DNA of 36,715 nt from Patescibacteria group bacterium (GCA_034659355.1 JAYEHC010000055.1:1-36715), one strand, 5' to 3'. Shown: positions 11,969 to 27,604, numbered from the stretch's first letter. The notes: generated from the letters alone by a model not told the origin. A program made the numbers and translations.

Positions 11969-12012
11969 AAACCATAATAAATCAATTTTAGAGCACTAAT
12001 AAAACCAAAAAA

Positions 12013-13083
12013 ATGGAAAAATTACAAGGTTTTGAAAATTCTAATCAAGAATATAGCGAAAAGGAATTTAGAGAGCAAGGAACTGACGCTCTTTTGCGTT
12101 TCTTGGACACTGCGGAAAATGCGAAGTTTCTACATGACAAAAAATTTGAAGAAATTTTTGCTGATGAAGAAAGTAAAAGAGACTTTGTTGATAATTTGGA
12201 AATTGAAGAATTTATTGAATTACTTAACACTTTTAATGGAATTTTAAGAAATAAGGAAAAAGAAGAGTGGAGAATGGATGGAGAAACTGTTGCTCTTGTA
12301 GGTTTTGTAGATGGTGCTATTCCTCCTCAACACGAAGATAAACCAGAGTTATTGGCAAAAGTTTTATCTGTTGCAAAAGAAATGAACCAAAATAAAAAGG
12401 ATTTAAAAGATATCGCCTTGCTTTTTTCATCCTCTATCAATGCTATACATTCCTATGCAGACGGCAATGGAAGAACAAGCAGATTGATTTATTCATTGTT
12501 TACTCAAGATTTTAATGATGAAACAAAAAAAGAATTGAAAGAAGTTTTGTTAGAAGGTGGCAGAGAAAAAATAAATATTAATCCTGGATTTATTGAAGGC
12601 GAAATAGAGGATCTGGTAGGAATAAAAGAACCAAATATAAGCAAGGGTGAAATAGCACAATTTTGGCGAGACGATAAAGTTGGAAAAAGGAAAGACATAA
12701 AATTTAATCAAGAAATTAACAAAGCGGACAAAGAACTGTTTTTTAATCGTTTGGATAAAGATAATGAATATTTTTTTTGGAGCGTAGTTAAATATTTACA
12801 AGACAATTCTGATATAAATAGAGAAAAGTGTTTAAAAGAAATTCCTAATAGTTCCAACAATGCAATGGCAATTCCAATCAGTATTTTATCAAAAAGTTTA
12901 GATAATGAAAAATTGAATAAAATATTTCAAAATTATAGAGATTTAAAAAAAGAATATGTTGAAAAACTGATTGATTCTATCGCTAATCCTGATAAAAAAG
13001 AATATCAAATTGAAATTAAAGGACAAAAAATTTCAATAAAAGATTATTTTGAAAGTAAGATAAAGGAGGAACAAGAAAGATGA
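12013..13083 (+). CDS. Fic/Doc family protein
   Basis: HSYADGNGRTSR matches the Fic motif HxFx(D/E)GNGRxxR, with Y for F. Confidence 0.85.
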   Translation: MEKLQGFENSNQEYSEKEFREQGTDALLRFLDTAENAKFLHDKKFEEIFADEESKRDFVDNLEIEEFIELLNTFNGILRNKEKEEWRMDGETVALVGFVDGAIPPQHEDKPELLAKVLSVAKEMNQNKKDLKDIALLFSSSINAIHSYADGNGRTSRLIYSLFTQDFNDETKKELKEVLLEGGREKININPGFIEGEIEDLVGIKEPNISKGEIAQFWRDDKVGKRKDIKFNQEINKADKELFFNRLDKDNEYFFWSVVKYLQDNSDINREKCLKEIPNSSNNAMAIPISILSKSLDNEKLNKIFQNYRDLKKEYVEKLIDSIANPDKKEYQIEIKGQKISIKDYFESKIKEEQER

Positions 13084-13100
13084 AAATAAATAAATTAAAT

Positions 13101-13127
13101 ATTTTAAAACACTAACCAAAAAAAATT
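13101..13127 (+). repeat. Left direct repeat of ATPase cassette 1
   Basis: ATTTTAAAACACTAACCAAAAAAAATT, 26/27 identical to 14710-14736. Confidence 0.7.
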
Positions 13128-13198
13128 AAAAAGAGAACACAAAAAATATTCCTTGGCTTAAAGACGCAAACAAATGCTTTTGATTTTATAATTTGGCG

Positions 13199-13227
13199 TT
13201 GACAAATATGGATTGCTATGCTATTAT
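13199..13227 (+). promoter_or_regulatory. Sigma70-type promoter of ATPase 1
   Basis: TTGACA-17 bp-TATTAT, with extended TG. Confidence 0.7.
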
Positions 13228-13266
13228 AGTAGTAAATATAACCGTTATAAATATTACTATTTGTTT

Positions 13267-14709
13267 ATGAAGTTCTATAACAGAGAAAAAGAAATAAAAA
13301 TAATCAATGAAATTGTAAAGAAAAGCAAAAAAAGCGGACAGTTGATTGTGTTGCAGGGAAAGAGAAGAGTTGGCAAGACAGCTTTAATTCTTCATACTTT
13401 TAAAAAACAGAATTTCCTTTATTTTTTTGTTAGCAAGAAAACAGAGAAAGAATTACTGGATGATTTTAGAGAAGAAATCAGCAAAAAATTAGATCTGCCG
13501 TATTTAGGCGAATTTAAAAGTTTAAAGCATCTATTGGAATTTTTGTTTGATTATAGCAAGAAAAATAATTTAATTGTTGTTTTTGACGAGTTTCAAAATT
13601 TTAAAATAATCAATCCTTCTCTTTTTTCGGACTTGCAGAAATTTTGGGACTTAAATAAAGACAAAAGCAAGATTGCCATATTCTGCATTGGTTCAATGTT
13701 CACTCTGATCAAAAAAATTTTTACTTCTTCAAAGGAGCCGTTATACAACAGAGCTAATAAAATCATAGAACTTAAACCTTTTGATTTAAAAACCCAGCAG
13801 ACTGTTTTAAAAGATTTTAAATTATTGTCCCCCAAGAATTTTCTAGTTTTCTATTCGCTTTTTAACGGAATGCCGAAATATTTTGAATTGATAGAAGATA
13901 ATGATTTAAGAGGCAAGGATATAAAGCAAATTATTAAAAAGTTGTTTTGCGAAGAAGACGCCTATTTAATCAAAGAAGGCAAAAATATTTTAATTGAAGA
14001 ATTCGGCAGGTCTTATGAGAAATACTTTTCAGTTTTAACGGCTATTGCTCTGGGAAAAACAACTAAAAACGAGATATATAATTATACTGGCATAAATATA
14101 AATTCTTTGGGGGTTTTGCTAAAAACGCTGGAGGATTTTTATGAAATCGTAGAAAGAAAGATTCCTGTTTTAGAAAAAAAGGCAAGTTCCAAATTAAGTT
14201 CGTATAAAATCAAAGATGAATTTCTATCTTTTTGGTTCCGCTATATTTACAAAAAAAATTATTTGATAGAAATAAAAAATTGGCAAGCGCTGTTTAATTA
14301 TATTGATAAAGATCTGGATAATTATTTGGGATTTAAGTTTGAAAATTTAGTCAGAGATTATTTGATAGAACAAAATAATAGCAAAAATAATATTTTTGAT
14401 TTTGAGCAAATCGGCTCTTTCTGGAAAAGACCTGATTTATCCGGCGATAATAAGGAGATAGATATCGTAGCGGTTAGTAAAGAAAGTAAAACAGCGCTGA
14501 TTGGCGAATGTAAATTGAATTTTAGTAAAGTGAATCAAAACTTGGTTGATAATTTAATTAGAAAAAGCAAGTTTGTTTCTAAGCTGAAAAATTATAAAAA
14601 AGTTTTTTATATTTTTACCGTTAAAGAATTGCCGAAAGAAAAAAAGAAAATTCTGGCGAAAAATGATTTTAAGTTTTTGTCGTTGGAGAAAATAATAAAG
14701 AAATTATAA
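13267..14709 (+). CDS. Archaeal-type AAA ATPase with wHTH and C-terminal PD-(D/E)xK domain (ATPase_2/DUF234-like)
   Basis: MKFYNREKE start, Walker A GKRRVGKT, Walker B VVFDEFQ, DEFLSFWFRYI, EIDIVA...IGECK. ATG 13267 preferred over TTG 13213. Confidence 0.88.
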   Translation: MKFYNREKEIKIINEIVKKSKKSGQLIVLQGKRRVGKTALILHTFKKQNFLYFFVSKKTEKELLDDFREEISKKLDLPYLGEFKSLKHLLEFLFDYSKKNNLIVVFDEFQNFKIINPSLFSDLQKFWDLNKDKSKIAIFCIGSMFTLIKKIFTSSKEPLYNRANKIIELKPFDLKTQQTVLKDFKLLSPKNFLVFYSLFNGMPKYFELIEDNDLRGKDIKQIIKKLFCEEDAYLIKEGKNILIEEFGRSYEKYFSVLTAIALGKTTKNEIYNYTGININSLGVLLKTLEDFYEIVERKIPVLEKKASSKLSSYKIKDEFLSFWFRYIYKKNYLIEIKNWQALFNYIDKDLDNYLGFKFENLVRDYLIEQNNSKNNIFDFEQIGSFWKRPDLSGDNKEIDIVAVSKESKTALIGECKLNFSKVNQNLVDNLIRKSKFVSKLKNYKKVFYIFTVKELPKEKKKILAKNDFKFLSLEKIIKKL

Positions 14710-14736
14710 ATTTTAAAAAACTAACCAAAAAAAATT
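14710..14736 (+). repeat. Right direct repeat of ATPase cassette 1
   Basis: Starts on the first base after the TAA stop (14707-14709). Confidence 0.7.
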
Positions 14737-14889: not shown

Positions 14890-15096
14890 TGTCTTATGTC
14901 TTCTTTTGCAATCAAAGTGGCATTTTGTCAAGAAAAGAACATCTCAAAGAATTATTTAATGACACAATTGAAAAATAATTTTTAAAATTAAAATAGAGTT
15001 GTTTTACATTTCAATACTCTTACAAAAACTGGTTTGCAATCAGTTCCTAATATCTTCCAAGCAAACAAAATTATTTAATTTTTAACAACCAAAAAA

Positions 15097-17490
15097 ATGA
15101 AAAACAGAACACAAAAAAACATCCTCTGGTTTGAGGAAGTAACCAATAAAGATGTTAATCTTGTTGGCGGGAAAAATGCGTCACTAGGGGAAATGTATCA
15201 AAAATTAACTAAGAAGAAAGTAAACATTCCAAATGGGTTTGCTTTGACAGCGCGCGCTTATCGGCAGTTTATGAAAGAGTCGGGACTGATGAATGAAATT
15301 AAAGAAATTTTAAGTGACCTTGATACGCACAATATCAGAAATCTTTCTGAAAGAGGAGAAAAAGTCAGACAGGCGATTATGTCTGCAAAGTTTCCTGAAC
15401 ATTTAAGTGATGAAATTGCTAAAGCTTACAAGGAAATGGAAAAGATGTATGGGAAAAATGTTGATACAGCGGTAAGATCAAGCGCAACGGCGGAGGATTT
15501 ACCGGACGCTTCTTTCGCGGGACAGCAGGATACCTATTTAAATATTAAAGGAATTCACAATGTTGTTTATGCTACTCATCAGTGTATTGCTTCGCTTTTT
15601 ACAAATCGCGCTATTTCATATCGTGAAGACAAGGGATTTGATCATTTTACAATTGCACTTTCAGTTGGCATTCAAAAAATGGTTCGCAGTGATCAGGCAG
15701 TTAGTGGGGTGATGTTTTCTATCGATACGGAGTCTGGATTTCGTGATGCAGTCTTGATAAATGCTGCTTATGGACTTGGAGAAAATATTGTTCAGGGGAA
15801 AGTTACACCTGATGAATTTTATGTTTTTCAACCAACACTTAAAAAAGGATTTAAGCCGATTATAGAAAAAACTCTTGGTTCAAAAGCTTTTCGCTTAATT
15901 TATAGCACAGAAGGAAAATCACCTATCAAAAATATCGCAGTTTCAAAAGAAGATAGAAAGAAATTTTGTATTACGAACGCAGAGATTATAAAACTTGCAG
16001 AGTGGGCAACAATTATTGAAGAACATTATAAGAGACCAATGGATATGGAATGGGCAAAAGATGGGGTGACGGGAAAATTGTTTATTGTTCAGGCTCGTCC
16101 AGAAACAGCGCAAAGTGTGCGGGATGTAAATATTTTAGAAGAATATATTTTAAGAAAAAAAAGCAGGATTCTTTGTTCAGGCGCGAGTGTAGGCTATAAA
16201 ATCGGTAAAGGAAAAGTTAATCTTATTAAAGATGTAAGTGGTATTGAAGATTTTAAAAAAGGAGAAGTCTTAGTGACAGAGATGACCGATCCTGACTGGG
16301 AGCCGATTATGAAAATTGCTTCAGCAATTGTCACAAATTCAGGAGGAAGAACTTGTCATGCGGCAATTGTTTCGCGGGAGCTGGGAATTCCGTGTGTTGT
16401 TGGCACAAGGATTTGCACAGAAGTTATTAAAAACGGAAAGGATGTGACTGTAAGTTGCGCAGAGGGCGAGGAAGGATATGTCTACGAAGGATTACTTGAT
16501 TTTGAAGTCAAGAAAACAAATATTGGTAAGATCAAAAAGCCGAAAGTAAAAATAATGATGAATCTTGCCGAACCAGAGCAAGCATTTACACAATCGTTTA
16601 TTCCAAATGACGGAGTGGGTTTAGCAAGAGAGGAGTTTATTATAAACAATACAATAAAAGTTCATCCATTAGCATTAATGGCTCTGGATAAGAAAATAAA
16701 AGGTGTTGTAATTGATAGGCAAACAGTTAGTAAGATACATCATATTACTGCTGGTTATAAAACTAAAAATGATTTCTTTATTGATAAGTTGGCGCAAGGG
16801 ATTGGAAAATTGGGAGCTGCTTTTTATCCAAAAGATGTTATTGTAAGATTTTCTGATTTCAAAAGTAATGAGTATGCTAACTTGATTGGTGGGAAATATT
16901 TTGAGCCGAGCGAAGAAAATCCAATGATTGGTTGGCGAGGCGCTTCAAGATACTATGACGATAAGTATAGGGAGGCGTTCAAAATGGAATGTGAAGCGAT
17001 TAAAAAAGTTCGTGAGGAATTCGGGTTGACGAATGTTATTGTGATGGTACCATTTTGTCGAACAGTAGAAGAAGGTAAAAAAGTTTTAGCGGTAATGAAA
17101 GAAGCGGGACTTGAAAGAGGAAAGAATAAATTGCGAGTCTATGTAATGGCAGAAATTCCAGCAAATATTCTTTTAGTTGATGAGTTTGCTAAGATTTTTG
17201 ATGGTTTCTCAATTGGTAGTAATGATCTAACTCAGTTAACTCTTGGAATTGACAGGGATAATGGAAATTTATCTCATATTGCCAATGAGAAAAATGAGGC
17301 AGTAAAAATATTAATTAGACAACTCATCAAAGGTGCTCATAAAAGAAAAAGAAAAGTTGGTATTTGCGGACAAGCGCCATCAGACTTTCCTGACTTTGCG
17401 GAGTTTGTTGTTAAAGAAGGAATTGACAGTATTTCTTTAACATCTGATACGGTTTTGAAGACGATGATTTATTTGGGGAAGAAACGGTAG
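15097..17490 (+). CDS. ppsA: Phosphoenolpyruvate synthase
   Basis: VGGKNASLGEM, AVRSSATAED, GGRTCHAAIVSRE (phospho-His), DGFSIGSNDLTQ. Confidence 0.98.
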   Translation: MKNRTQKNILWFEEVTNKDVNLVGGKNASLGEMYQKLTKKKVNIPNGFALTARAYRQFMKESGLMNEIKEILSDLDTHNIRNLSERGEKVRQAIMSAKFPEHLSDEIAKAYKEMEKMYGKNVDTAVRSSATAEDLPDASFAGQQDTYLNIKGIHNVVYATHQCIASLFTNRAISYREDKGFDHFTIALSVGIQKMVRSDQAVSGVMFSIDTESGFRDAVLINAAYGLGENIVQGKVTPDEFYVFQPTLKKGFKPIIEKTLGSKAFRLIYSTEGKSPIKNIAVSKEDRKKFCITNAEIIKLAEWATIIEEHYKRPMDMEWAKDGVTGKLFIVQARPETAQSVRDVNILEEYILRKKSRILCSGASVGYKIGKGKVNLIKDVSGIEDFKKGEVLVTEMTDPDWEPIMKIASAIVTNSGGRTCHAAIVSRELGIPCVVGTRICTEVIKNGKDVTVSCAEGEEGYVYEGLLDFEVKKTNIGKIKKPKVKIMMNLAEPEQAFTQSFIPNDGVGLAREEFIINNTIKVHPLALMALDKKIKGVVIDRQTVSKIHHITAGYKTKNDFFIDKLAQGIGKLGAAFYPKDVIVRFSDFKSNEYANLIGGKYFEPSEENPMIGWRGASRYYDDKYREAFKMECEAIKKVREEFGLTNVIVMVPFCRTVEEGKKVLAVMKEAGLERGKNKLRVYVMAEIPANILLVDEFAKIFDGFSIGSNDLTQLTLGIDRDNGNLSHIANEKNEAVKILIRQLIKGAHKRKRKVGICGQAPSDFPDFAEFVVKEGIDSISLTSDTVLKTMIYLGKKR

Positions 17491-17547
17491 ATATTGGATA
17501 TTAAATATTAGGATATTGGAGCGAGGGCTTCATCCCGAAAAAATATT

Positions 17548-17580
17548 GTTGGCTCCATAGTCCTGTAGGGCTGTGGAGCC
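17548..17580 (+). repeat. REP-like hairpin D, left boundary of cassette 1
   Basis: GTTGGCTCCATAGTCCTGTAGGGCTGTGGAGCC. Confidence 0.8.
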
Positions 17581-17620
17581 GAAGTGTGAGAATGTAAAAT
17601 ATCATTAATCTGGATTATCT

Positions 17621-17911
17621 ATGAATGAGCTCATAACAATACTCGGTACTGTTTTTTCAGGAATATCAATAATATTATTTTGTGTTGTTCTTAAAATTAT
17701 TTTTGTGGATTTGCCAAAATACGAAAAACAAATAAATAAATTATACAAAGAGAAAGAAGAAAAAATAAAAAAAGAAAGAAGAAGTACAAAATTAACTATG
17801 CATATTGAAGGAGCTATAGAAAATATAGAGAAAGAATATAATCCTAAAATTAAGGAGTTGGAGAGAAAGAGAAGATTTCTTTTAGATAAAATACCGTTTT
17901 TAAGAAAATAA
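17621..17911 (+). CDS. Small single-TM coiled-coil protein (paralog of 19490..19762)
   Basis: N-terminal hydrophobic helix; shares EKQINKLxKEKxEKI and LExKRRFLLDKIPFLxK with its paralog. Confidence 0.8.
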   Translation: MNELITILGTVFSGISIILFCVVLKIIFVDLPKYEKQINKLYKEKEEKIKKERRSTKLTMHIEGAIENIEKEYNPKIKELERKRRFLLDKIPFLRK

Positions 17912-18004
17912 GAAACGGGTTATTATATCTAAAGCCCCGTCAAAGTTTTCAATAAGGACTCTGACGAGGCGGAAAAAATTAAAGAATAAAAATTCTCGCA
18001 TTAA

Positions 18005-18037
18005 GATTCCACAGCCCTGCGGGACTATGGAACCAGC
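18005..18037 (-). repeat. REP-like hairpin D, right boundary (inverted) of cassette 1
   Basis: Reverse complement is GCTGGTTCCATAGTCCCGCAGGGCTGTGGAATC. Confidence 0.8.
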
Positions 18038-18066
18038 GATATATTGATTTTTCCTAAAAACAAAAT

Positions 18067-18115
18067 TGGACAATTTTGGTAGTCCGTTGACAGAATTGTC
18101 CAGATGGTGTATATT
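18067..18115 (+). promoter_or_regulatory. Promoter of ATPase 2 with overlapping inverted-repeat operator
   Basis: TTGACA (18087)-17 bp-TATATT (18110). TGGACAATT (18067-75) / AATTGTCCA (18094-102) flank the -35. Confidence 0.65.
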
Positions 18116-18121
18116 GACATT

Positions 18122-19303
18122 ATGATTAAAAGAAATATTACCAAAAAAATATTGGCATATTATAAGCAATATCCAATTATATCATTGACTGGTCCGAGAC
18201 AGTCCGGAAAAACTACATTAGTGAAAAAGATTTTTCCAAAAAAGCCGTATGTTAATCTTGAAGATTTGGAGAATAGAGAATTCGCGCTGAATGATCCGAA
18301 AGGGTTTTTGTCACAATACGAAAACGGCGCGATTATTGACGAAGTTCAAAGAGTTCCTGAGATAATATCGTATCTTCAAGTCACGGTGGACGAGAAAAAG
18401 AAAAATGGTCTGTTCGTTTTAACAGGATCACAGAATTTTCTTCTGATGGAAAGTATTGGGCAATCGCTGGCGGGACGAACGGCAATTTTTAAGTTGTTTC
18501 CTTTTTCTTCGTCTGAATTATTTTCAGCAAAAGCAAAATTCAATAAAACTAAAATAGATGACTTGTTATTTAAAGGATTTTATCCGAAATTGTTTGATAA
18601 GAAAGTTGATACTGTCGGCTACTATACAAATTATATCCAAACTTATGTGGAACGGGATGTGCGCTTGATAAAAAATATTTCCAATTTGAGCATATTCAAA
18701 AAGTTTTTAAATTTGTGCGCCGCAAGAACAGGTCAGCTGTTAAATATTTCCTCATTAGCTGAAGATTGCGGTATAAACCAAAAAACAGCGCAATCTTGGC
18801 TGTCAGTTTTGGAAGCAAGTTTTATTATTTATTTATTGCGCCCGCATTATAAAAATTATAATAAGCGCGTCATCAAGATGCCGAAAATTTATTTTTACGA
18901 TACTGGTCTTTTGTGTTCATTGCTTGGATTAACAGACAAAAAACAGCTTAAAAATCATTATTTAAAAGGAAGTATTTTTGAATCTTTTGTAATTTCAGAA
19001 TTTATTAAATATAAATATAATCAAGGAGCAGAACCAAATGTTTATTTTTGGAGAGACAAAATTGGAAATGAGATTGATCTTCTAATTGAAACGCCAAATA
19101 AAATAATACCAATTGAAATAAAATCAGGGCAGACAATTAATAGTAATTATTTTAAAGGATTGAAATATTATAATAATTTATCGCAAGGCAGCGGCAAAAA
19201 TTCTTATGTTGTCTATGGCGGTAATTTAAAACAGTTAAGAAGCGAAGCGAATGTTTTGGGCTGGGAGTATTTATATAATAATATTGATAAAATATTAAAA
19301 TAA
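18122..19303 (+). CDS. AAA_14 + DUF4143 ATPase/PD-(D/E)xK nuclease-like protein
   Basis: GPRQSGKTT, IIDEVQ, LTGS, KMPKIYFYDTGL, EIDLLI...PIEIKS. Start MIKR preferred because 18104 lies inside the promoter. Confidence 0.92.
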   Translation: MIKRNITKKILAYYKQYPIISLTGPRQSGKTTLVKKIFPKKPYVNLEDLENREFALNDPKGFLSQYENGAIIDEVQRVPEIISYLQVTVDEKKKNGLFVLTGSQNFLLMESIGQSLAGRTAIFKLFPFSSSELFSAKAKFNKTKIDDLLFKGFYPKLFDKKVDTVGYYTNYIQTYVERDVRLIKNISNLSIFKKFLNLCAARTGQLLNISSLAEDCGINQKTAQSWLSVLEASFIIYLLRPHYKNYNKRVIKMPKIYFYDTGLLCSLLGLTDKKQLKNHYLKGSIFESFVISEFIKYKYNQGAEPNVYFWRDKIGNEIDLLIETPNKIIPIEIKSGQTINSNYFKGLKYYNNLSQGSGKNSYVVYGGNLKQLRSEANVLGWEYLYNNIDKILK

Positions 19304-19371
19304 TTAATAGTATTTCTTTAACATCTGATACGGTTTTGAAAACGATGATTTATTTGGGGAAGAATAAGTAG
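19302..19371 (+). repeat. Duplicated 3' end of ppsA (att-like direct repeat)
   Basis: 64/70 identical to 17421-17490. Reads INSISLTSDTVLKTMIYLGKNK* versus ppsA IDSISLTSDTVLKTMIYLGKKR*. Confidence 0.95.
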
Positions 19372-19419
19372 CTTTTTAGGTTGTAGCTTCTTAGCTTTTT
19401 AGGTTGTGGATTTTCTTAG

Positions 19420-19453
19420 GCTGGCTCCATAGTCCCGATAGGGCTGTGGAGCC
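19420..19453 (+). repeat. REP-like hairpin D, left boundary of cassette 2
   Basis: GCTGGCTCCATAGTCCCGATAGGGCTGTGGAGCC. Confidence 0.8.
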
Positions 19454-19489
19454 GTGATGCGAAATGTTAAATATTGATTTAAGTTCTCT

Positions 19490-19762
19490 ATGGATTATTG
19501 TCTCGCTATAATTCTTATTGCTATTCCCGTAACATTGGTTACTGTTGTTATTTTTGTCGAGATTAGTAGAATTGAAAAACAAATAAATAAGTTGCATAAG
19601 GAAAAAAGAGAGAAAATAAGAGATGCAAAAGATCCTCGTAGCAGTTTATGTTATGACATGAGATTTTTAGATAATGAAATAGAGGATTATGACTTGCAAA
19701 TTGAAGGATTAGAGAAAAAAAGAAGATTTCTTTTAGACAAAATACCATTTTTAAAGAAGTAA
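19490..19762 (+). CDS. Small single-TM coiled-coil protein (paralog of 17621..17911)
   Basis: Shared N- and C-terminal motifs, divergent middle. Confidence 0.8.
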   Translation: MDYCLAIILIAIPVTLVTVVIFVEISRIEKQINKLHKEKREKIRDAKDPRSSLCYDMRFLDNEIEDYDLQIEGLEKKRRFLLDKIPFLKK

Positions 19763-19766
19763 AAAT

Positions 19767-20042
19767 ATGTTTGATATAAAAATAGGAATCGAAAAATTTT
19801 TAATACAGTTATTAGCTATAATAAGGAAATCATGGAATGGGAAAGATTTAAAATTTAGAAATAATGCTTGTTGGAAAAAAAATAAAGAAGTGCCATTTTG
19901 CCAAGTATGTTTTGATAATGAAGGGAAACTAAATCCTCTTCAATCTATTGCTGGATTTGATTGGGATTATGAGTGCAAGAATTGTAAAGAACATTTTTAT
20001 GTAAGTAAAAAAGGACCAAAAGTAGAAGTTAATCGCAGGTAA
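19767..20042 (+). CDS. Small putative zinc-ribbon protein
   Basis: CQVC...CKNC pairs; starts 4 bp after the preceding stop. Confidence 0.7.
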   Translation: MFDIKIGIEKFLIQLLAIIRKSWNGKDLKFRNNACWKKNKEVPFCQVCFDNEGKLNPLQSIAGFDWDYECKNCKEHFYVSKKGPKVEVNRR

Positions 20043-20070
20043 TTTATTAAATATAGAAAGGGATAAAATT

Positions 20071-20235
20071 ATGGAAAAGAAAAAAGAAAATTTTACTGAT
20101 GCGATAATTTGTATTTTAGTAATGTTTTTAATTATTTGGGTTTTAACTGTTTTAGATAAAAAGGTTGATAAAAGTGGTCCAACTCCATATCGTCCTATTG
20201 AAGATGAAGGTCATTTAAGATGGGCTGATGGATAA
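20071..20235 (+). CDS. 54-aa single-TM protein (not in the ORF track)
   Basis: MEKKKENFTDAIICILVMFLIIWVLTVLDKKVDKSGPTPYRPIEDEGHLRWADG*; GAAAGGGA upstream. Confidence 0.6.
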   Translation: MEKKKENFTDAIICILVMFLIIWVLTVLDKKVDKSGPTPYRPIEDEGHLRWADG

Positions 20236-20276
20236 AACAAAATATAATACCATCACATAATAAAGTCCCGCATTAA

Positions 20277-20309
20277 AATTCCACAGTCCTACGAGATTAT
20301 GGAACTGAC
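20277..20309 (-). repeat. Degenerate REP-like hairpin D, right boundary of cassette 2
   Basis: AATTCCACAGTCCTACGAGATTATGGAACTGAC, preceded by CGCATTAA as at about 17997. Confidence 0.7.
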
Positions 20310-20324
20310 ATTAACCGATATTAA

Positions 20325-20442
20325 AACACACCCCATCCGCTTCGCGAATTACCCTTCTCAAGAGGGGAATAAATTAAAATCGTTTCGCGAAGCGAACAAA
20401 TTCCCCTCTTGAGAGGGGTAATCCCGCAGGGATGGGGTGTGT
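20325..20442. repeat. Repeat family E inverted pair upstream of DUF559
   Basis: AACACACCCCATCC...CCCTTCTCAAGAGGGGA (20325-20368) and an inverted copy at 20400-20442. Confidence 0.85.
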
Positions 20443-20454
20443 AAAAACAATACT

Positions 20455-20820
20455 ATGCGCAAAATAATCCCCTATAACCCAAAACTAAAACAGCTCGCCA
20501 AAAACCTAAGAAATAATAGTACTTTATCAGAAGTATTGTTATGGCAACATCTAAAAAATAAAAAAATGAAAGGATATGATTTTCATCGCCAAAAACCAAT
20601 TGGAAATTATATCGTTGATTTTTTCTGTAATGATCTAATGCTGGCAATTGAAATTGATGGTATCAGCCACAATGAAAGAATTGATAAAGACATAGAAAGA
20701 CAAAGGCAAATAGAAAGCTTCGGAATAAGTTTTTTGAGATTTGATGATCTTGATATAAAAAAGAATATTGTGGGAGTGATTGTGGCGATTGAGGGTTGGA
20801 TTAATAGAGATGGTTTATAA
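20455..20820 (+). CDS. DUF559 (Vsr-like) endonuclease domain protein
   Basis: AKNLRNNSTLSEVLLW, FHRQKPIGNYIVDF, LAIEIDGISH, LRF. Confidence 0.92.
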   Translation: MRKIIPYNPKLKQLAKNLRNNSTLSEVLLWQHLKNKKMKGYDFHRQKPIGNYIVDFFCNDLMLAIEIDGISHNERIDKDIERQRQIESFGISFLRFDDLDIKKNIVGVIVAIEGWINRDGL

Positions 20821-20829
20821 TACATTTAT

Positions 20830-20873
20830 AACACACCCCATCCGCTTCGCGAATTACCCCTCTCAAGAGGGGA
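20830..20873 (+). repeat. Repeat family E direct copy downstream of DUF559
   Basis: 43/44 identical to 20325-20368. Confidence 0.9.
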
Positions 20874-20929
20874 GTTTATTACATTACTCGTTGCGGAAAC
20901 TATTTTCTAAACAACTCCCAATATTCTCC

Positions 20930-21067
20930 CGCGGGAACGGATTTGTAATCCGTTTCTGATGTTTTGAAAAATAACAAGGCTTATGTTGTCGGTAAAATCT
21001 TATGATAAGAACAAAGACTGTTGATATTTAAAAACAAAGGGAACTGTTTACAAAACAGTTCCCGCGA
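20930..21067 (+). repeat. Repeat family C copy 3 (divergent spacer)
   Basis: CGCGGGAACGGATTTGTAATCCGTTTC ... GGGAACTGTTTACAAAACAGTTCCCGCG. Confidence 0.8.
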
Positions 21068-21130
21068 AAAAAATATAACTAACACGGTAAAATATCAAAC
21101 ACAAAAGTTTAATCCGATATTTTAATAACT

Positions 21131-25401: not shown

Positions 25402-26169
25402 ATGTTCTACAAAAACTTTATTAAAAACCAAACCCCCGATATTCGCCATCTTTTTGATATGAGAGAAGTTGTTTTTGATCAAGAATGGTTGGAAAAACAA
25501 GAAGATATTGAATTGTATTATATGTATCGCGGAATGGGATTATCAGCGGAAGATAAAAAGAAAATTGAAATAGCGCGCTTGCGATATGATATTACAATTA
25601 TTCCGCCATTGATGCTAGGCAAAGAATTTAATAAAACTGCCGGACATTATCATTGCGAAGCGGCAACAGGAATTTCTTATCCGGAGATCTATGAAGTTTT
25701 ATTCGGTGAAGCGTATTATCTAATGCAACATTCAATTGAAAATAACTCTATTAAAGACGCTTATTTTGTTCGCGCTGTCGCTGGCGACAAAATAATTATT
25801 CCGCCAAATTATGGACATTTTACAATCAACGCTAGCGAGAAAGATTTAGTGATGGCAAATTGGGTCTGCCTTGATTGTATTTCGGATTACAGCGAAGTAA
25901 AGAAGAAGCGAGGCGCGTGTTATTTTGCTCTTGAAAATTTTACTAAAAATCCCCCTAGCTCCCTTTTACAAAAGGGAAACATAAAATGGCTTCCAAATAA
26001 AAACTATCGGGAGATTTCTAAGTTGAGAGAATTAAACCCGACTAATTTTTCTGAATTTGGATTAGAAAAAAATAAAGGAATGTATAAACTGGTTAATGAT
26101 TTGAACAAATTGGATTTTTTAGTCCGGCCAGAGGAATATAAAGATTTATGGGAGAGGGTTTTGGGATAA
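25402..26169 (+). CDS. Cupin-type (archaeal-like) glucose-6-phosphate isomerase family protein
   Basis: LRYDITIIPP, KTAGHYH, YPEIYEV, PPNYGHFTIN cupin metal motifs. Confidence 0.88.
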   Translation: MFYKNFIKNQTPDIRHLFDMREVVFDQEWLEKQEDIELYYMYRGMGLSAEDKKKIEIARLRYDITIIPPLMLGKEFNKTAGHYHCEAATGISYPEIYEVLFGEAYYLMQHSIENNSIKDAYFVRAVAGDKIIIPPNYGHFTINASEKDLVMANWVCLDCISDYSEVKKKRGACYFALENFTKNPPSSLLQKGNIKWLPNKNYREISKLRELNPTNFSEFGLEKNKGMYKLVNDLNKLDFLVRPEEYKDLWERVLG

Positions 26170-26316
26170 AAAAAGTATTTACTTTTTTGGCAAATATACG
26201 AAAATAGTAAAGAAAAAGATGGAAACGACAGAAAAATTAAAAATCTTGACAAACCATAGTTTTTTAAATCAAGTAATAAAAAAATGCGGTTAAATTTATA
26301 AAAAGGTAATTTTTAC

Positions 26317-26345
26317 TTGACAAGTCCAAAAATATCTGATAATAT
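26317..26345 (+). promoter_or_regulatory. Promoter of ATPase 3
   Basis: TTGACA-17 bp-TAATAT. Confidence 0.6.
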
Positions 26346-26373
26346 TGATTTAGCAATCCAATATTATCTATTT

Positions 26374-27573
26374 ATGTACCAACGAACAATTTTGTCAAAA
26401 TTAATTCCTTTCCTGGAAAAAGATCAGATTATAATGATAACTGGCGCGCGACAGGTTGGTAAAACAACTTTGCTTTTTCTGTTAAAAAAATATTTGGAAG
26501 ACAAGCAAGAAAAATGCTTTTATCTTAATCTGGAAAATCCAAGTTATAAAGACGCTCTTAATAAACATCCGGATAATATTTTTGAAATTATTCCTAAAGC
26601 GATCGCAAGAGGGGAAAGGCAATATCTTTTTTTGGACGAAGTTCAATATCTGGATAATCCCAGCAATTTTTTGAAATATCATTTTGACGAAAACAGGAAG
26701 AATTTAAAAATTATTACCAGCGGATCTTCAGCGTTTTATCTTGATCATAAATTTAAAGACAGCTTAGCGGGGCGAAAGTTTATTTTTGAATTGTTTGGCT
26801 TGAATTTTTATGAATTTTTAGATTTTAAAAAAGAAGTTGAAATCAAACAATTTCATCAGAAAAAAGTACCGAGTATTTATCACAGCAAGTTAATAAATTT
26901 ATGGGAGGAATATATTAGGTTCGGCTCTTATCCGGAAGTCGTTTTAAATGACGACATAAAAATTAAAAAAACCATTATTGAAAGTTTGGCTCTTTCTTAT
27001 GTTAAAAAAGATATTTACGAAGCAAACATTAAGGAATCGGAAAAATATTTTTATATTCTGAAAATATTGGCTGATCAAACCGGACAATTAGTGAATGCCA
27101 ATCAAATTGCCAACGCCATTAATTTGTCCGTCAAGACAGTGGAAAATTATTTGCAAGTAATGCAAAAATCATACCATCTTTCTTTAATCAAACCGTTTTT
27201 TAAAAATATAAAAAAAGAATTGACTAAAATGCCCAAAGTCTATTTTTATGATTTGGGTTTGAGGAATTATTTGTTGAATAATTTTGATTTAATTAATAAC
27301 AGATTAGATCGAGGACAAGTTTTGGAAAATATAATTTTTTTGAAATTTTTGAATTCTCACAAAAGAGACGGAATTAATTTTTGGAGAACGCAAGCGAAAA
27401 ATGAAGTTGATTTTATCGTGAACAGAGAGCGGGCATTTGAGGTAAAATTCAGTTCTAAGAATTTTCAAGAATCAAAATACGCTAAGTTTAAGAAGCAATA
27501 TCCAGAAATGAATTTGCGGTTTGTTTCTTATGACAATGTGGTTGAGGAATTGAAAAACGGAGAATTTATTTAA
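26374..27573 (+). CDS. AAA_14 + DUF4143 ATPase/PD-(D/E)xK nuclease-like protein
   Basis: GARQVGKTT, LFLDEVQ, SGSS, KMPKVYFYDLGLRN, EVDFIV...FEVK. Start MYQR preferred. Confidence 0.92.
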   Translation: MYQRTILSKLIPFLEKDQIIMITGARQVGKTTLLFLLKKYLEDKQEKCFYLNLENPSYKDALNKHPDNIFEIIPKAIARGERQYLFLDEVQYLDNPSNFLKYHFDENRKNLKIITSGSSAFYLDHKFKDSLAGRKFIFELFGLNFYEFLDFKKEVEIKQFHQKKVPSIYHSKLINLWEEYIRFGSYPEVVLNDDIKIKKTIIESLALSYVKKDIYEANIKESEKYFYILKILADQTGQLVNANQIANAINLSVKTVENYLQVMQKSYHLSLIKPFFKNIKKELTKMPKVYFYDLGLRNYLLNNFDLINNRLDRGQVLENIIFLKFLNSHKRDGINFWRTQAKNEVDFIVNRERAFEVKFSSKNFQESKYAKFKKQYPEMNLRFVSYDNVVEELKNGEFI

Positions 27574-27574
27574 G

Positions 27575-27604
27575 TTGTGGGAGAGGATTTTGGGATAAAA
27601 AAAG
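27575..27604 (+). repeat. Duplicated 3' end of the GPI gene (att-like direct repeat)
   Basis: 28/30 identical to 26146-26175; LWERILG* versus LWERVLG*. Confidence 0.9.

Follow-up and report, generated by a model that had tools for sequence, protein, structure and literature searches.

A second ppsA gene end behind an ATPase-nuclease cassette in a Patescibacteria genome: a probable footprint of insertion with long target duplication

The ppsA locus and its two gene ends

In the genome of a Patescibacteria group bacterium (GCA_034659355.1; 1.05 Mb in 108 contigs, labelled G000 among the genomes compared below), the 3' end of the housekeeping gene ppsA is present twice, and the second copy lies directly behind a gene predicted to encode an ATPase-nuclease. 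The window analyzed here is contig C55, 36,715 nucleotides (nt) at full length, and the features described from ppsA to 20305 are on the + strand unless stated otherwise. ppsA (15097–17490) is intact and encodes a 797-amino-acid (aa) protein of the phosphoenolpyruvate (PEP) synthase / pyruvate,water dikinase type (Pfam PPDK_N, 7e-124; PEP-utilizers, 1.4e-25; PEP-utilizers_C, 2.2e-61). Its functional last 23 codons and stop codon, called T1 (17421–17490), form the upstream copy of a direct repeat, and the downstream copy, T2 (19302–19371), is an untranslated ppsA tail.

Up to the stop codon, T1 and T2 share 64 of their 70 bases, and a repeat search returned the pair as a direct repeat of 75 nt (17421–17495 and 19302–19376) with 89% identity and a spacing of 1881. 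The first base of T2 falls inside the TAA stop codon of the ATPase gene (19301–19303); the T2 frame is offset from that of the ATPase, and T2 has no start codon of its own. The tail translations are IDSISLTSDTVLKTMIYLGKKR for T1 and INSISLTSDTVLKTMIYLGKNK for T2. Alignment and translation thus reproduced the repeat as first described in the initial annotation: 70 bp, six mismatches, frame and TAG retained, and a beginning within the ATPase stop. The same annotation called the differences protein-conserving, which holds for the reading frame, the TAG, and the absence of any indel, but not for the substitutions, five of which lie in three residue-changing codons (D to N, K to N, and R to K) and only one of which is synonymous. 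Because there are only six changes and five are in residue-changing codons, selection on T2 cannot be inferred, and purifying selection was rejected as a reading. The mismatches lie at both ends of the repeat, around an identical core of 32 nt. The tail is not a dispersed repeat, with T1 and T2 the only two copies in 1,048,292 bases. In a genome-wide null, in which each of 382 open reading frames (ORFs) of at least 250 aa was scored for a repeat flanking it upstream and downstream, the median score was 11 and the 95th percentile 17.45; the T1/T2 pair scored 55.5.

Within the 1.88-kb insert between the tails are the single ATPase gene, a 96-aa ORF, and hairpin repeats. The ATPase (18104–19303, 399 aa) matches Pfam DUF4143 (2.5e-54) and AAA_14 (7.1e-29), with a weak NERD match, and PADLOC assigns it to PDC-S01 (PDLC04790, 5.7e-106). 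Its predicted architecture is that of PDC-S01, a single protein of ~400 aa with an N-terminal AAA_14 domain and a C-terminal DUF4143 domain of the PD-(D/E)XK type; DUF4143 and DUF234, the latter found in a second cassette discussed below, are both listed among the PD-(D/E)XK nuclease-fold families (PMC3424549). The gene is preceded by a leader (18046–18121) with a promoter-like site, TTGACA-17-TATATT (18087–18115), lying within an inverted repeat (TGGACAATT/AATTGTCCA, 11/12 matches). The leader is conserved in L058, an 82%-identical homologue from another genome, and the -10 hexamer of the promoter-like site (18110–18115) lies downstream of the first ATG (18104), which together suggest the ATG at 18122 as the real start. 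Translation would then probably begin there, possibly from a leaderless mRNA, as in L058, and yield 393 aa. A Pfam search found no recombinase in the insert. A dedicated integrase was considered and rejected, as the window has no integrase or recombinase match and the whole genome has only two tyrosine and no serine recombinase matches.

Behind each tail, the same order of parts is found, in agreement with the initial annotation: a simple repeat that differs between the tails, then the same hairpin, then a paralogous small gene. T1 is followed by simple repeat 'a' (17490–17520; period 7, GATATTG), which in the related genomes G012 and G001 follows both tails. Next comes a hairpin repeat (REP; 17540–17593; fold -26.8 kcal/mol, z -6.4) with 10 hits in the genome, the left arm of a 54-nt inverted pair that surrounds smA1 (17621–17911) and is 78% complementary to the inverted hairpin repeat (REP') at 17992–18045 on the - strand. 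The right half of the latter, from 18021, is the left end of a tract common to G012. T2 is followed by simple repeat 'b' (19369–19402; period 8, TAGCTTTT), which in genomes G004, G017, and G008 lies behind a single tail, and by a second copy of the hairpin repeat (19420–19470), recognized by repeat search and fold (-26.3 kcal/mol, z -4.9). Beyond it are smA2 (19490–19762), two small ORFs (19767–20235) of 91 aa, with CxxC pairs, and 54 aa, and an inverted hairpin repeat on the - strand (20262–20305; 84% to 17990–18033, weak fold) that closes the second module. The two small ORFs are found only behind T2 and have no family and no other genome copy.

smA1 encodes a predicted membrane/coiled-coil protein of 96 aa with no family, and smA2 a 90-aa paralogue (44% amino-acid identity). 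Each is the other's only paralogue, with no copy elsewhere in the genome, and no homologue was detected at E <= 1e-3 in the relatives' loci. A contig of depth 2.8 in a sequencing run from another study (X5) joins smA1 at 17721 to smA2 at 19573, and would be a hybrid of the two genes or a third allele. The arrangement of small genes between inverted hairpin copies (17540–18045 and 19420–20305; 54-nt arms, 78% complementary) resembles a passenger-carrying miniature inverted-repeat transposable element, and the hairpin repeat folds well only on the strand where G-U pairs form. Farther downstream, a DUF559 endonuclease gene (20437–20820) lies between 56-nt direct repeats of 91% identity (20321–20881) that are parts of long hairpin repeats with inverted arms at 20395–20456 and 20817–20880; an 83%-identical copy is present on contig C2. 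Just upstream of trpS, a 150-nt element with internal inverted repeats (20920–21068), dispersed in the genome with 30 blast hits, has a 96%-identical counterpart downstream of T2 in G012.

Filled, empty, and exchanged loci in related genomes

ppsA was present in 33 of 61 genomes searched, G000 included, and, as the initial annotation had proposed, the DNA downstream of it was compared and the tails counted in 18 family members, in five of them over stretches of at most 2.4 kb. A second tail was found in two of the 18 loci, those of G012 and G001, and in both it lies directly behind a DUF4143 ATPase. The remaining 16 showed one ppsA end only, and the ATPase was not found there, so that the repeat exists as a single copy where the insert is lacking. 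In G012, the order is ppsA, T1, ATPase (97.5% amino-acid identity), and T2, with a repeat of 97 nt situated 107 nt from the start codon. In G001, a decayed T2 follows a 5'-truncated ATPase in which another DUF4143 gene is nested. This second DUF4143 gene (contig C23; L043/L070), 33% identical to the older one, has replaced the 5' part of the latter, and T1 is separated from the two ATPases by a membrane-like ORF of 267 aa.

G000, G012, and G001 share one 'ATPase stop + TTAA' junction, although T2 has an additional 11 nt on its upstream side in G001. This makes the duplication old, and it does not reflect one recent import into this genome. In G012 and G001, the ATPase-tail junction is present without the smA genes. 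Metagenome contigs scanned with a 21-nt tail motif added five loci on four contigs. One of these contigs, with two tails at a distance of 2981 nt, matches G001 wherever the two align, so it may not be independent of G001; another locus, L076, has a clean single tail.

The closest homologues of the ATPase at loci other than ppsA (in G007, L058, and L059, with amino-acid identities of 86%, 82%, and 72%, respectively) have no copy of the tail. The tail is therefore derived from the target rather than carried by the cassette, and the possibility that it belongs to the cassette was ruled out. The initial annotation also expected that repeated insertion would build a tandem array of tails, which did not materialize at this site, as at most two tails were found at the ppsA 3' end in the 18 relatives' loci and four metagenome contigs. 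At another locus of G000 (contig C26, 1669–3725; L083), three direct copies of a 70–130-nt segment are separated by single genes, one of 274 aa with no family and one of 293 aa with DUF4238; this is an array of the kind predicted for the ppsA tails.

Comparison of divergence along the window bears on when the cassette arrived. The tract 18021–19364, which comprises the leader, the ATPase, and bases 1–63 of T2, is 97.4% identical to G012, with a synonymous divergence (dS) of 0.078, whereas ppsA is 91.3% identical to G012 (dS 0.43) and 82% to G001. The DUF234 cassette on the other side of ppsA is similarly close to G012 (94.1%, dS 0.09). Other window genes are 67–79% identical to G012 and 79–86% to G001, with leuS as an exception (73–85% to G012, 80–82% to G001). 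The contrast of 0.078 and 0.09 with 0.43 indicates that both cassettes were exchanged between lineages far later than ppsA, the DUF4143 cassette between ppsA loci, and supports the initial annotation's proposal that the cassette came from the ppsA locus of a relative. It also rules out the import of a single block including ppsA as the only event, given the dS of 0.08–0.09 of the flanking cassettes. ppsA is itself closer to G012, which by its labels belongs to another genus (91% at the DNA level), than to the genus-mate G001 (82%), and most other window genes are nearer to G001; the ppsA region was therefore probably exchanged between lineages as well.

The exchanged tract of the DUF4143 cassette ends inside T2, whose last 7 bases and flank differ from G012. 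Moreover, compared with G012 and G001, the two tails have traded distal ends. The sequence ACGG-TAG, the period-7 repeat, and the next 40 nt, which lie behind T2 in G012 and G001, lie behind T1 here, and the end and flank of T1 are 92.8% identical to the T2 flank of G012 over 139 nt. In turn, the distal end of T2, the period-8 repeat, and the hairpin are 84–85% identical to the single-tail loci of G004, G017, and G008. The 'new' and 'old' tails are therefore mosaic, and the tail copies served as recombination sites between lineages. In this respect, the initial annotation, according to which the cassette supplied a new tail and pushed the old tail and its cargo downstream, was right in part: the end and flank of T2 do fit single-tail loci, but the tails are mosaic and the duplication is old. 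When the left junction of G012 was considered as the product of a deletion, a 24-nt filler there was found to match 17952–17972 in reverse (score 15; the 99th percentile of shuffles was 11), which suggests a history shared with the 3' flank of smA1 and hints at a common, more complex ancestor.

The cassette family and its footprint at other loci

The number of DUF4143 copies varies between 0 and 12 in 24 family genomes, 13 of which have none, and reaches 12 in two genomes of about 1.1–1.3 Mb; G015 and G003 carry a DUF4143 gene just upstream of ppsA. PDC-S01 homologues were found across phyla, and PDC-S01 is placed fourth by frequency among the predicted defence systems of prokaryotes (PMC12988326). 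In a preprint reporting that four of eight candidates protected E. coli (10.1101/2024.09.26.614923), the representatives of PDC-S01 and of PDC-S27 fall outside those four. By its sequence, the ATPase is a candidate for single-gene phage defence. Among the titles and abstracts listed for DUF4143 and PDC-S01, none is about mobility, and the portions of the two defence papers (PMC12988326, 10.1101/2024.09.26.614923) considered here mention neither mobility nor flanking duplications. The spread of PDC-S01 is undescribed in the titles, abstracts, and excerpts that were searched.

The footprint recurs at other sites of the cassette family, which the initial annotation did not recognize. Two further cassettes in the window are flanked by direct repeats. 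ATPase2 (26317–27573), also DUF4143 and PDC-S01, lies between 30-nt copies (26146–26175 and 27575–27604) of the 3' end of a glucose-6-phosphate isomerase gene. The corresponding site in G001 is empty and has one copy, identical to the downstream copy at 35 of 36 positions. The DUF234 ATPase (PDC-S27, 13213–14709) is flanked by 50-nt repeats (13078–13127 and 14687–14736). On the same side, the 5' boundary of ppsA (ACTAACCAAAAAAA, with or without the ATG and first codons) occurs in several copies between 11996 and 15125, namely at 11996–12020, now the start of a Fic-domain gene; at 13109–13153, with ATG changed to ATT; at 14718–14736; and at 15085–15125, the real start. What precedes the Fic gene here stands immediately upstream of ppsA in G012.

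The association between cassette and repeat was assessed in three sets of loci. In this genome, a tight repeat (score >= 25, with the downstream copy starting between -40 and +15 from the stop codon) flanks three of the eight scorable ATPase-nuclease genes, compared with five of 374 other ORFs (p = 3e-4). Among 15 homologue loci from other genomes and phyla, four of the 14 that could be scored reached at least 23, each with a different repeat, a set that has no controls. Across the 24 family genomes, with 28 DUF4143 loci, eight of the 26 scorable loci reached at least 20, compared with 3 of 594 mismatched control pairs; three of these eight are the two DUF4143 cassettes of the window and the ppsA copy of G012. 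The repeats that flank the cassette family are locally derived, differ by locus, and range from 23 to 138 nt. Direct repeats of comparable design are also found on other contigs of G000: on C79 (5605–7065; L084), a GT4 glycosyltransferase gene lies between 160-nt copies, the downstream one beginning within the stop codon, and on C44 (8238–9296; L085), a 265-aa gene of no clear family lies between 111-nt copies that include a start codon and the first codons.

Origin of the second tail and its meaning

We consider it probable that T2 is a footprint left when a one-gene PDC-S01 cassette entered the 3' end of ppsA by insertion with long target duplication, and that the locus was later reshuffled. 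A self-contained cassette with its own promoter, encoding the AAA_14-DUF4143 ATPase-nuclease, would have inserted at the ppsA 3' end and duplicated ~80–100 bp of the target, so that ppsA retained an entire end (T1) and a spare one (T2) came to lie directly behind the cassette's stop codon. This event would be old and common to G012 and G001, and the tail copies would later have acted as short homology arms. As comparison shows, the cassette, together with bases 1–63 of T2, was exchanged recently between lineages, the exchange ending inside the tail. Reciprocal recombination between tail copies, we infer, swapped the distal tail ends and their flanks, whether by excision and re-entry, by unequal crossing-over, or by import with one crossover in the tail, and the outcome would be the present chimera, in which T1 is followed by an 'a-type' and T2 by a 'b-type' module. 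For the duplication itself, we favor two staggered breaks ~80–100 bp apart, filled by host repair and possibly provoked by the nuclease of the cassette.

The known system closest to this proposal is the 'insertion with long target duplication' of Furuta, Abe and Kobayashi 2010 (PMC2853133; the earliest description is its reference 37), characterized there by repeats of more than 30 bp, a single copy in the genome without the insert, and no other mobile element. It is described in that paper for all types of restriction-modification systems and for a lone mcrA nuclease gene; double-strand breakage is suggested as the common property, and a cycle of insertion, repeat-mediated amplification, and release is proposed, with direct evidence for amplification only. 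The insertions reported there resemble the ppsA locus in being short units free of integrase and transposase, with nuclease cargo and genome-unique repeats that often cover the 3' end of a neighboring gene. Here, the repeat measures 70–75 nt at 89–91% identity (97 nt in G012), and the insert of 1.88 kb is well within the 20-kb bound and has no integrase, transposase, or other mobile element. The differences from that paper's examples are threefold. The cargo here joins an AAA ATPase and a PD-(D/E)XK domain in one protein, AAA_14 plus DUF4143, in place of restriction and modification genes, with no methyltransferase; the event is old and reshuffled, with swapped repeat ends, a nested small gene, and an exchanged cassette; and the same footprint is found around genes that are not nucleases. 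In its structure, the locus thus fits insertion with long target duplication in all respects except the cargo. As a recombinase-free kind of insertion has already been described for restriction genes, the locus is no new kind of element.

Several observations weigh against this explanation. The mechanism of long target duplication is itself unproven in PMC2853133. Five of the eight tight repeats in this genome flank genes of other kinds (a GT4 glycosyltransferase, a DUF4238 gene, two unknowns, and an ABC transporter), so the footprint is not specific to the ATPase and may be a property of the host, and the mechanism is apparently not exclusive to nuclease cargo. The homology between T1 and T2 ends at the tail stop codon, and the simple repeats that follow cannot be aligned, which is unlike a fresh duplication, so that later events must be invoked. 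The left copy of the repeat is 620 nt upstream of the ATPase start here, compared with ~100 nt in G012. The ATPase at the ppsA locus of G001 is only 64% identical in protein, compared with 86% for the G007 copy at another locus; common descent of the insertion in the three genomes is therefore not straightforward. Finally, the read evidence consists of Logan contigs built at k=31, which break in the 32-nt core shared by T1 and T2, as well as in the hairpin repeat; the pairing of the tail halves therefore rests on the original assembly.

An integrative element that uses the ppsA tail as its attachment site is an alternative that we regard as unlikely. It would be a circle of 1.3–1.9 kb with one tail copy, T1 and T2 would be attL and attR, and integration would proceed by a recombinase acting in trans or by a RecA-type single crossover. 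As with integrative elements that insert at the 3' end of a tRNA or protein gene and restore it, the gene end is duplicated, the gene remains intact, and the displaced copy closes the insert on its far side. A 32-nt core that is identical in both copies, with the mismatches to either side of it, is what att sites look like, bases 1–63 of T2 travel with the cassette, the swapped distal ends are expected from reciprocal crossovers in the core, and the k=31 contigs would fit a circle plus an empty site just as well. Unlike such elements, however, the insert has no tyrosine or serine recombinase in it or linked to it, in a genome with so few matches of either class, and it has no att core of its own at other loci, where close homologues of the cassette lack the tail. 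The repeats of the family are locus-specific and of variable length, which is not expected of one att-specific enzyme. The unit and its flanks are covered to equal depth (31.6 vs 29.7), which gives no sign of amplification, and in the RecA-only version, the acquisition of the first tail copy is unexplained.

Tandem duplication in situ of a ~0.6-kb module (tail, simple repeat, hairpin, small gene, and inverted hairpin), with the ATPase landing between the copies or duplicating the whole 0.6 kb on insertion, is in our judgment improbable. It would account for the same order of parts on both sides of the ATPase and for smA1 and smA2 having no other relatives in the genome. The divergence between the supposed copies is uneven, however, with the tails at 91%, the hairpins at 76–85%, the smA proteins at 44%, and the simple repeats unalignable. 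Each flank is closer to other genomes (92.8% between the T1 flank and the G012 T2 flank; 84% between the T2 flank and G004/G017), and G012 and G001 have the ATPase-tail junction but no smA genes.

The reads also address a chimeric assembly, in which an a-type haplotype with the cassette and a b-type haplotype without it were joined through the tail core, so that the second tail and its b-type flank would belong to a different genome. In run X1, the likely source run, which contains 97% of the sampled words, the contigs tile the window path with 0 differences at a depth of 26–36, and include one that runs from the ATPase to T2 base 37 and one from T2 base 34 into the period-8 repeat and hairpin. 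The same run has two contigs that deviate from this path, one of 91 nt with four other letters (depth 18.6) and one of 461 nt (depth 9.45). Runs X2 and X3 of the same study have a G012-type junction within single contigs, and a run of another study yields a cassette-free contig that connects the ppsA tail to the second hairpin; missing cover in X2, X3, and X5 carries no weight. Despite these deviating and G012-type contigs and the breaks that fall exactly in the 32-nt core and hairpin repeat, a chimera is highly improbable, or at least unlikely for the b-type flank of this genome, because the two-tail form was assembled independently in G012 and G001, the latter with tails too diverged to be confused, and the two-tailed metagenome contig, even if not independent of G001, points the same way.

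Displaced gene ends are also known from the C-terminal displacement arrays of rhs and contact-dependent inhibition (CDI) genes, in which successive gene ends are displaced downstream along with small cargo genes and recombination in the conserved part of the gene has been suggested. The ppsA locus is similar in that a tail and a small cargo gene are displaced downstream. Unlike those arrays, the tail is a near-identical 23-residue C-terminus of a housekeeping protein in two copies, with no variable toxin domains or cognate immunity genes, and the small genes behind the tails have no family.

Returning to insertion with long target duplication, a broader version of it may be entertained, although we regard it as rather doubtful: PDC-S01 (DUF4143) and PDC-S27 (DUF234) could be autonomous one-gene mobile elements and not primarily defence systems. 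Their own ATPase-nuclease would open gene boundaries by widely staggered breaks, and after repair a duplication of 25–140 bp would remain, with the host gene whole and the gene end turned into a portable homology arm. If so, this arm would let the cassette excise, move between strains by ordinary homologous recombination, and swap neighboring cargo, and copies of gene ends would pile up, as they have on both sides of ppsA.

The locus forms a natural series, from empty sites through a compact filled site (G012) and a decayed filled site with a nested cassette (G001) to the reshuffled site in the window. As we read it, this series shows a cassette entering gene ends with no recombinase and with the gene left unbroken, and the duplicated gene end later becoming a recombination site that moves cassettes and small genes between lineages. 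For annotation, it calls for caution, as spare gene ends can be mistaken for pseudogenes or assembly errors. For the Patescibacteria, whose genomes are very small and poor in recombinases, it offers a testable route for the turnover of accessory genes.

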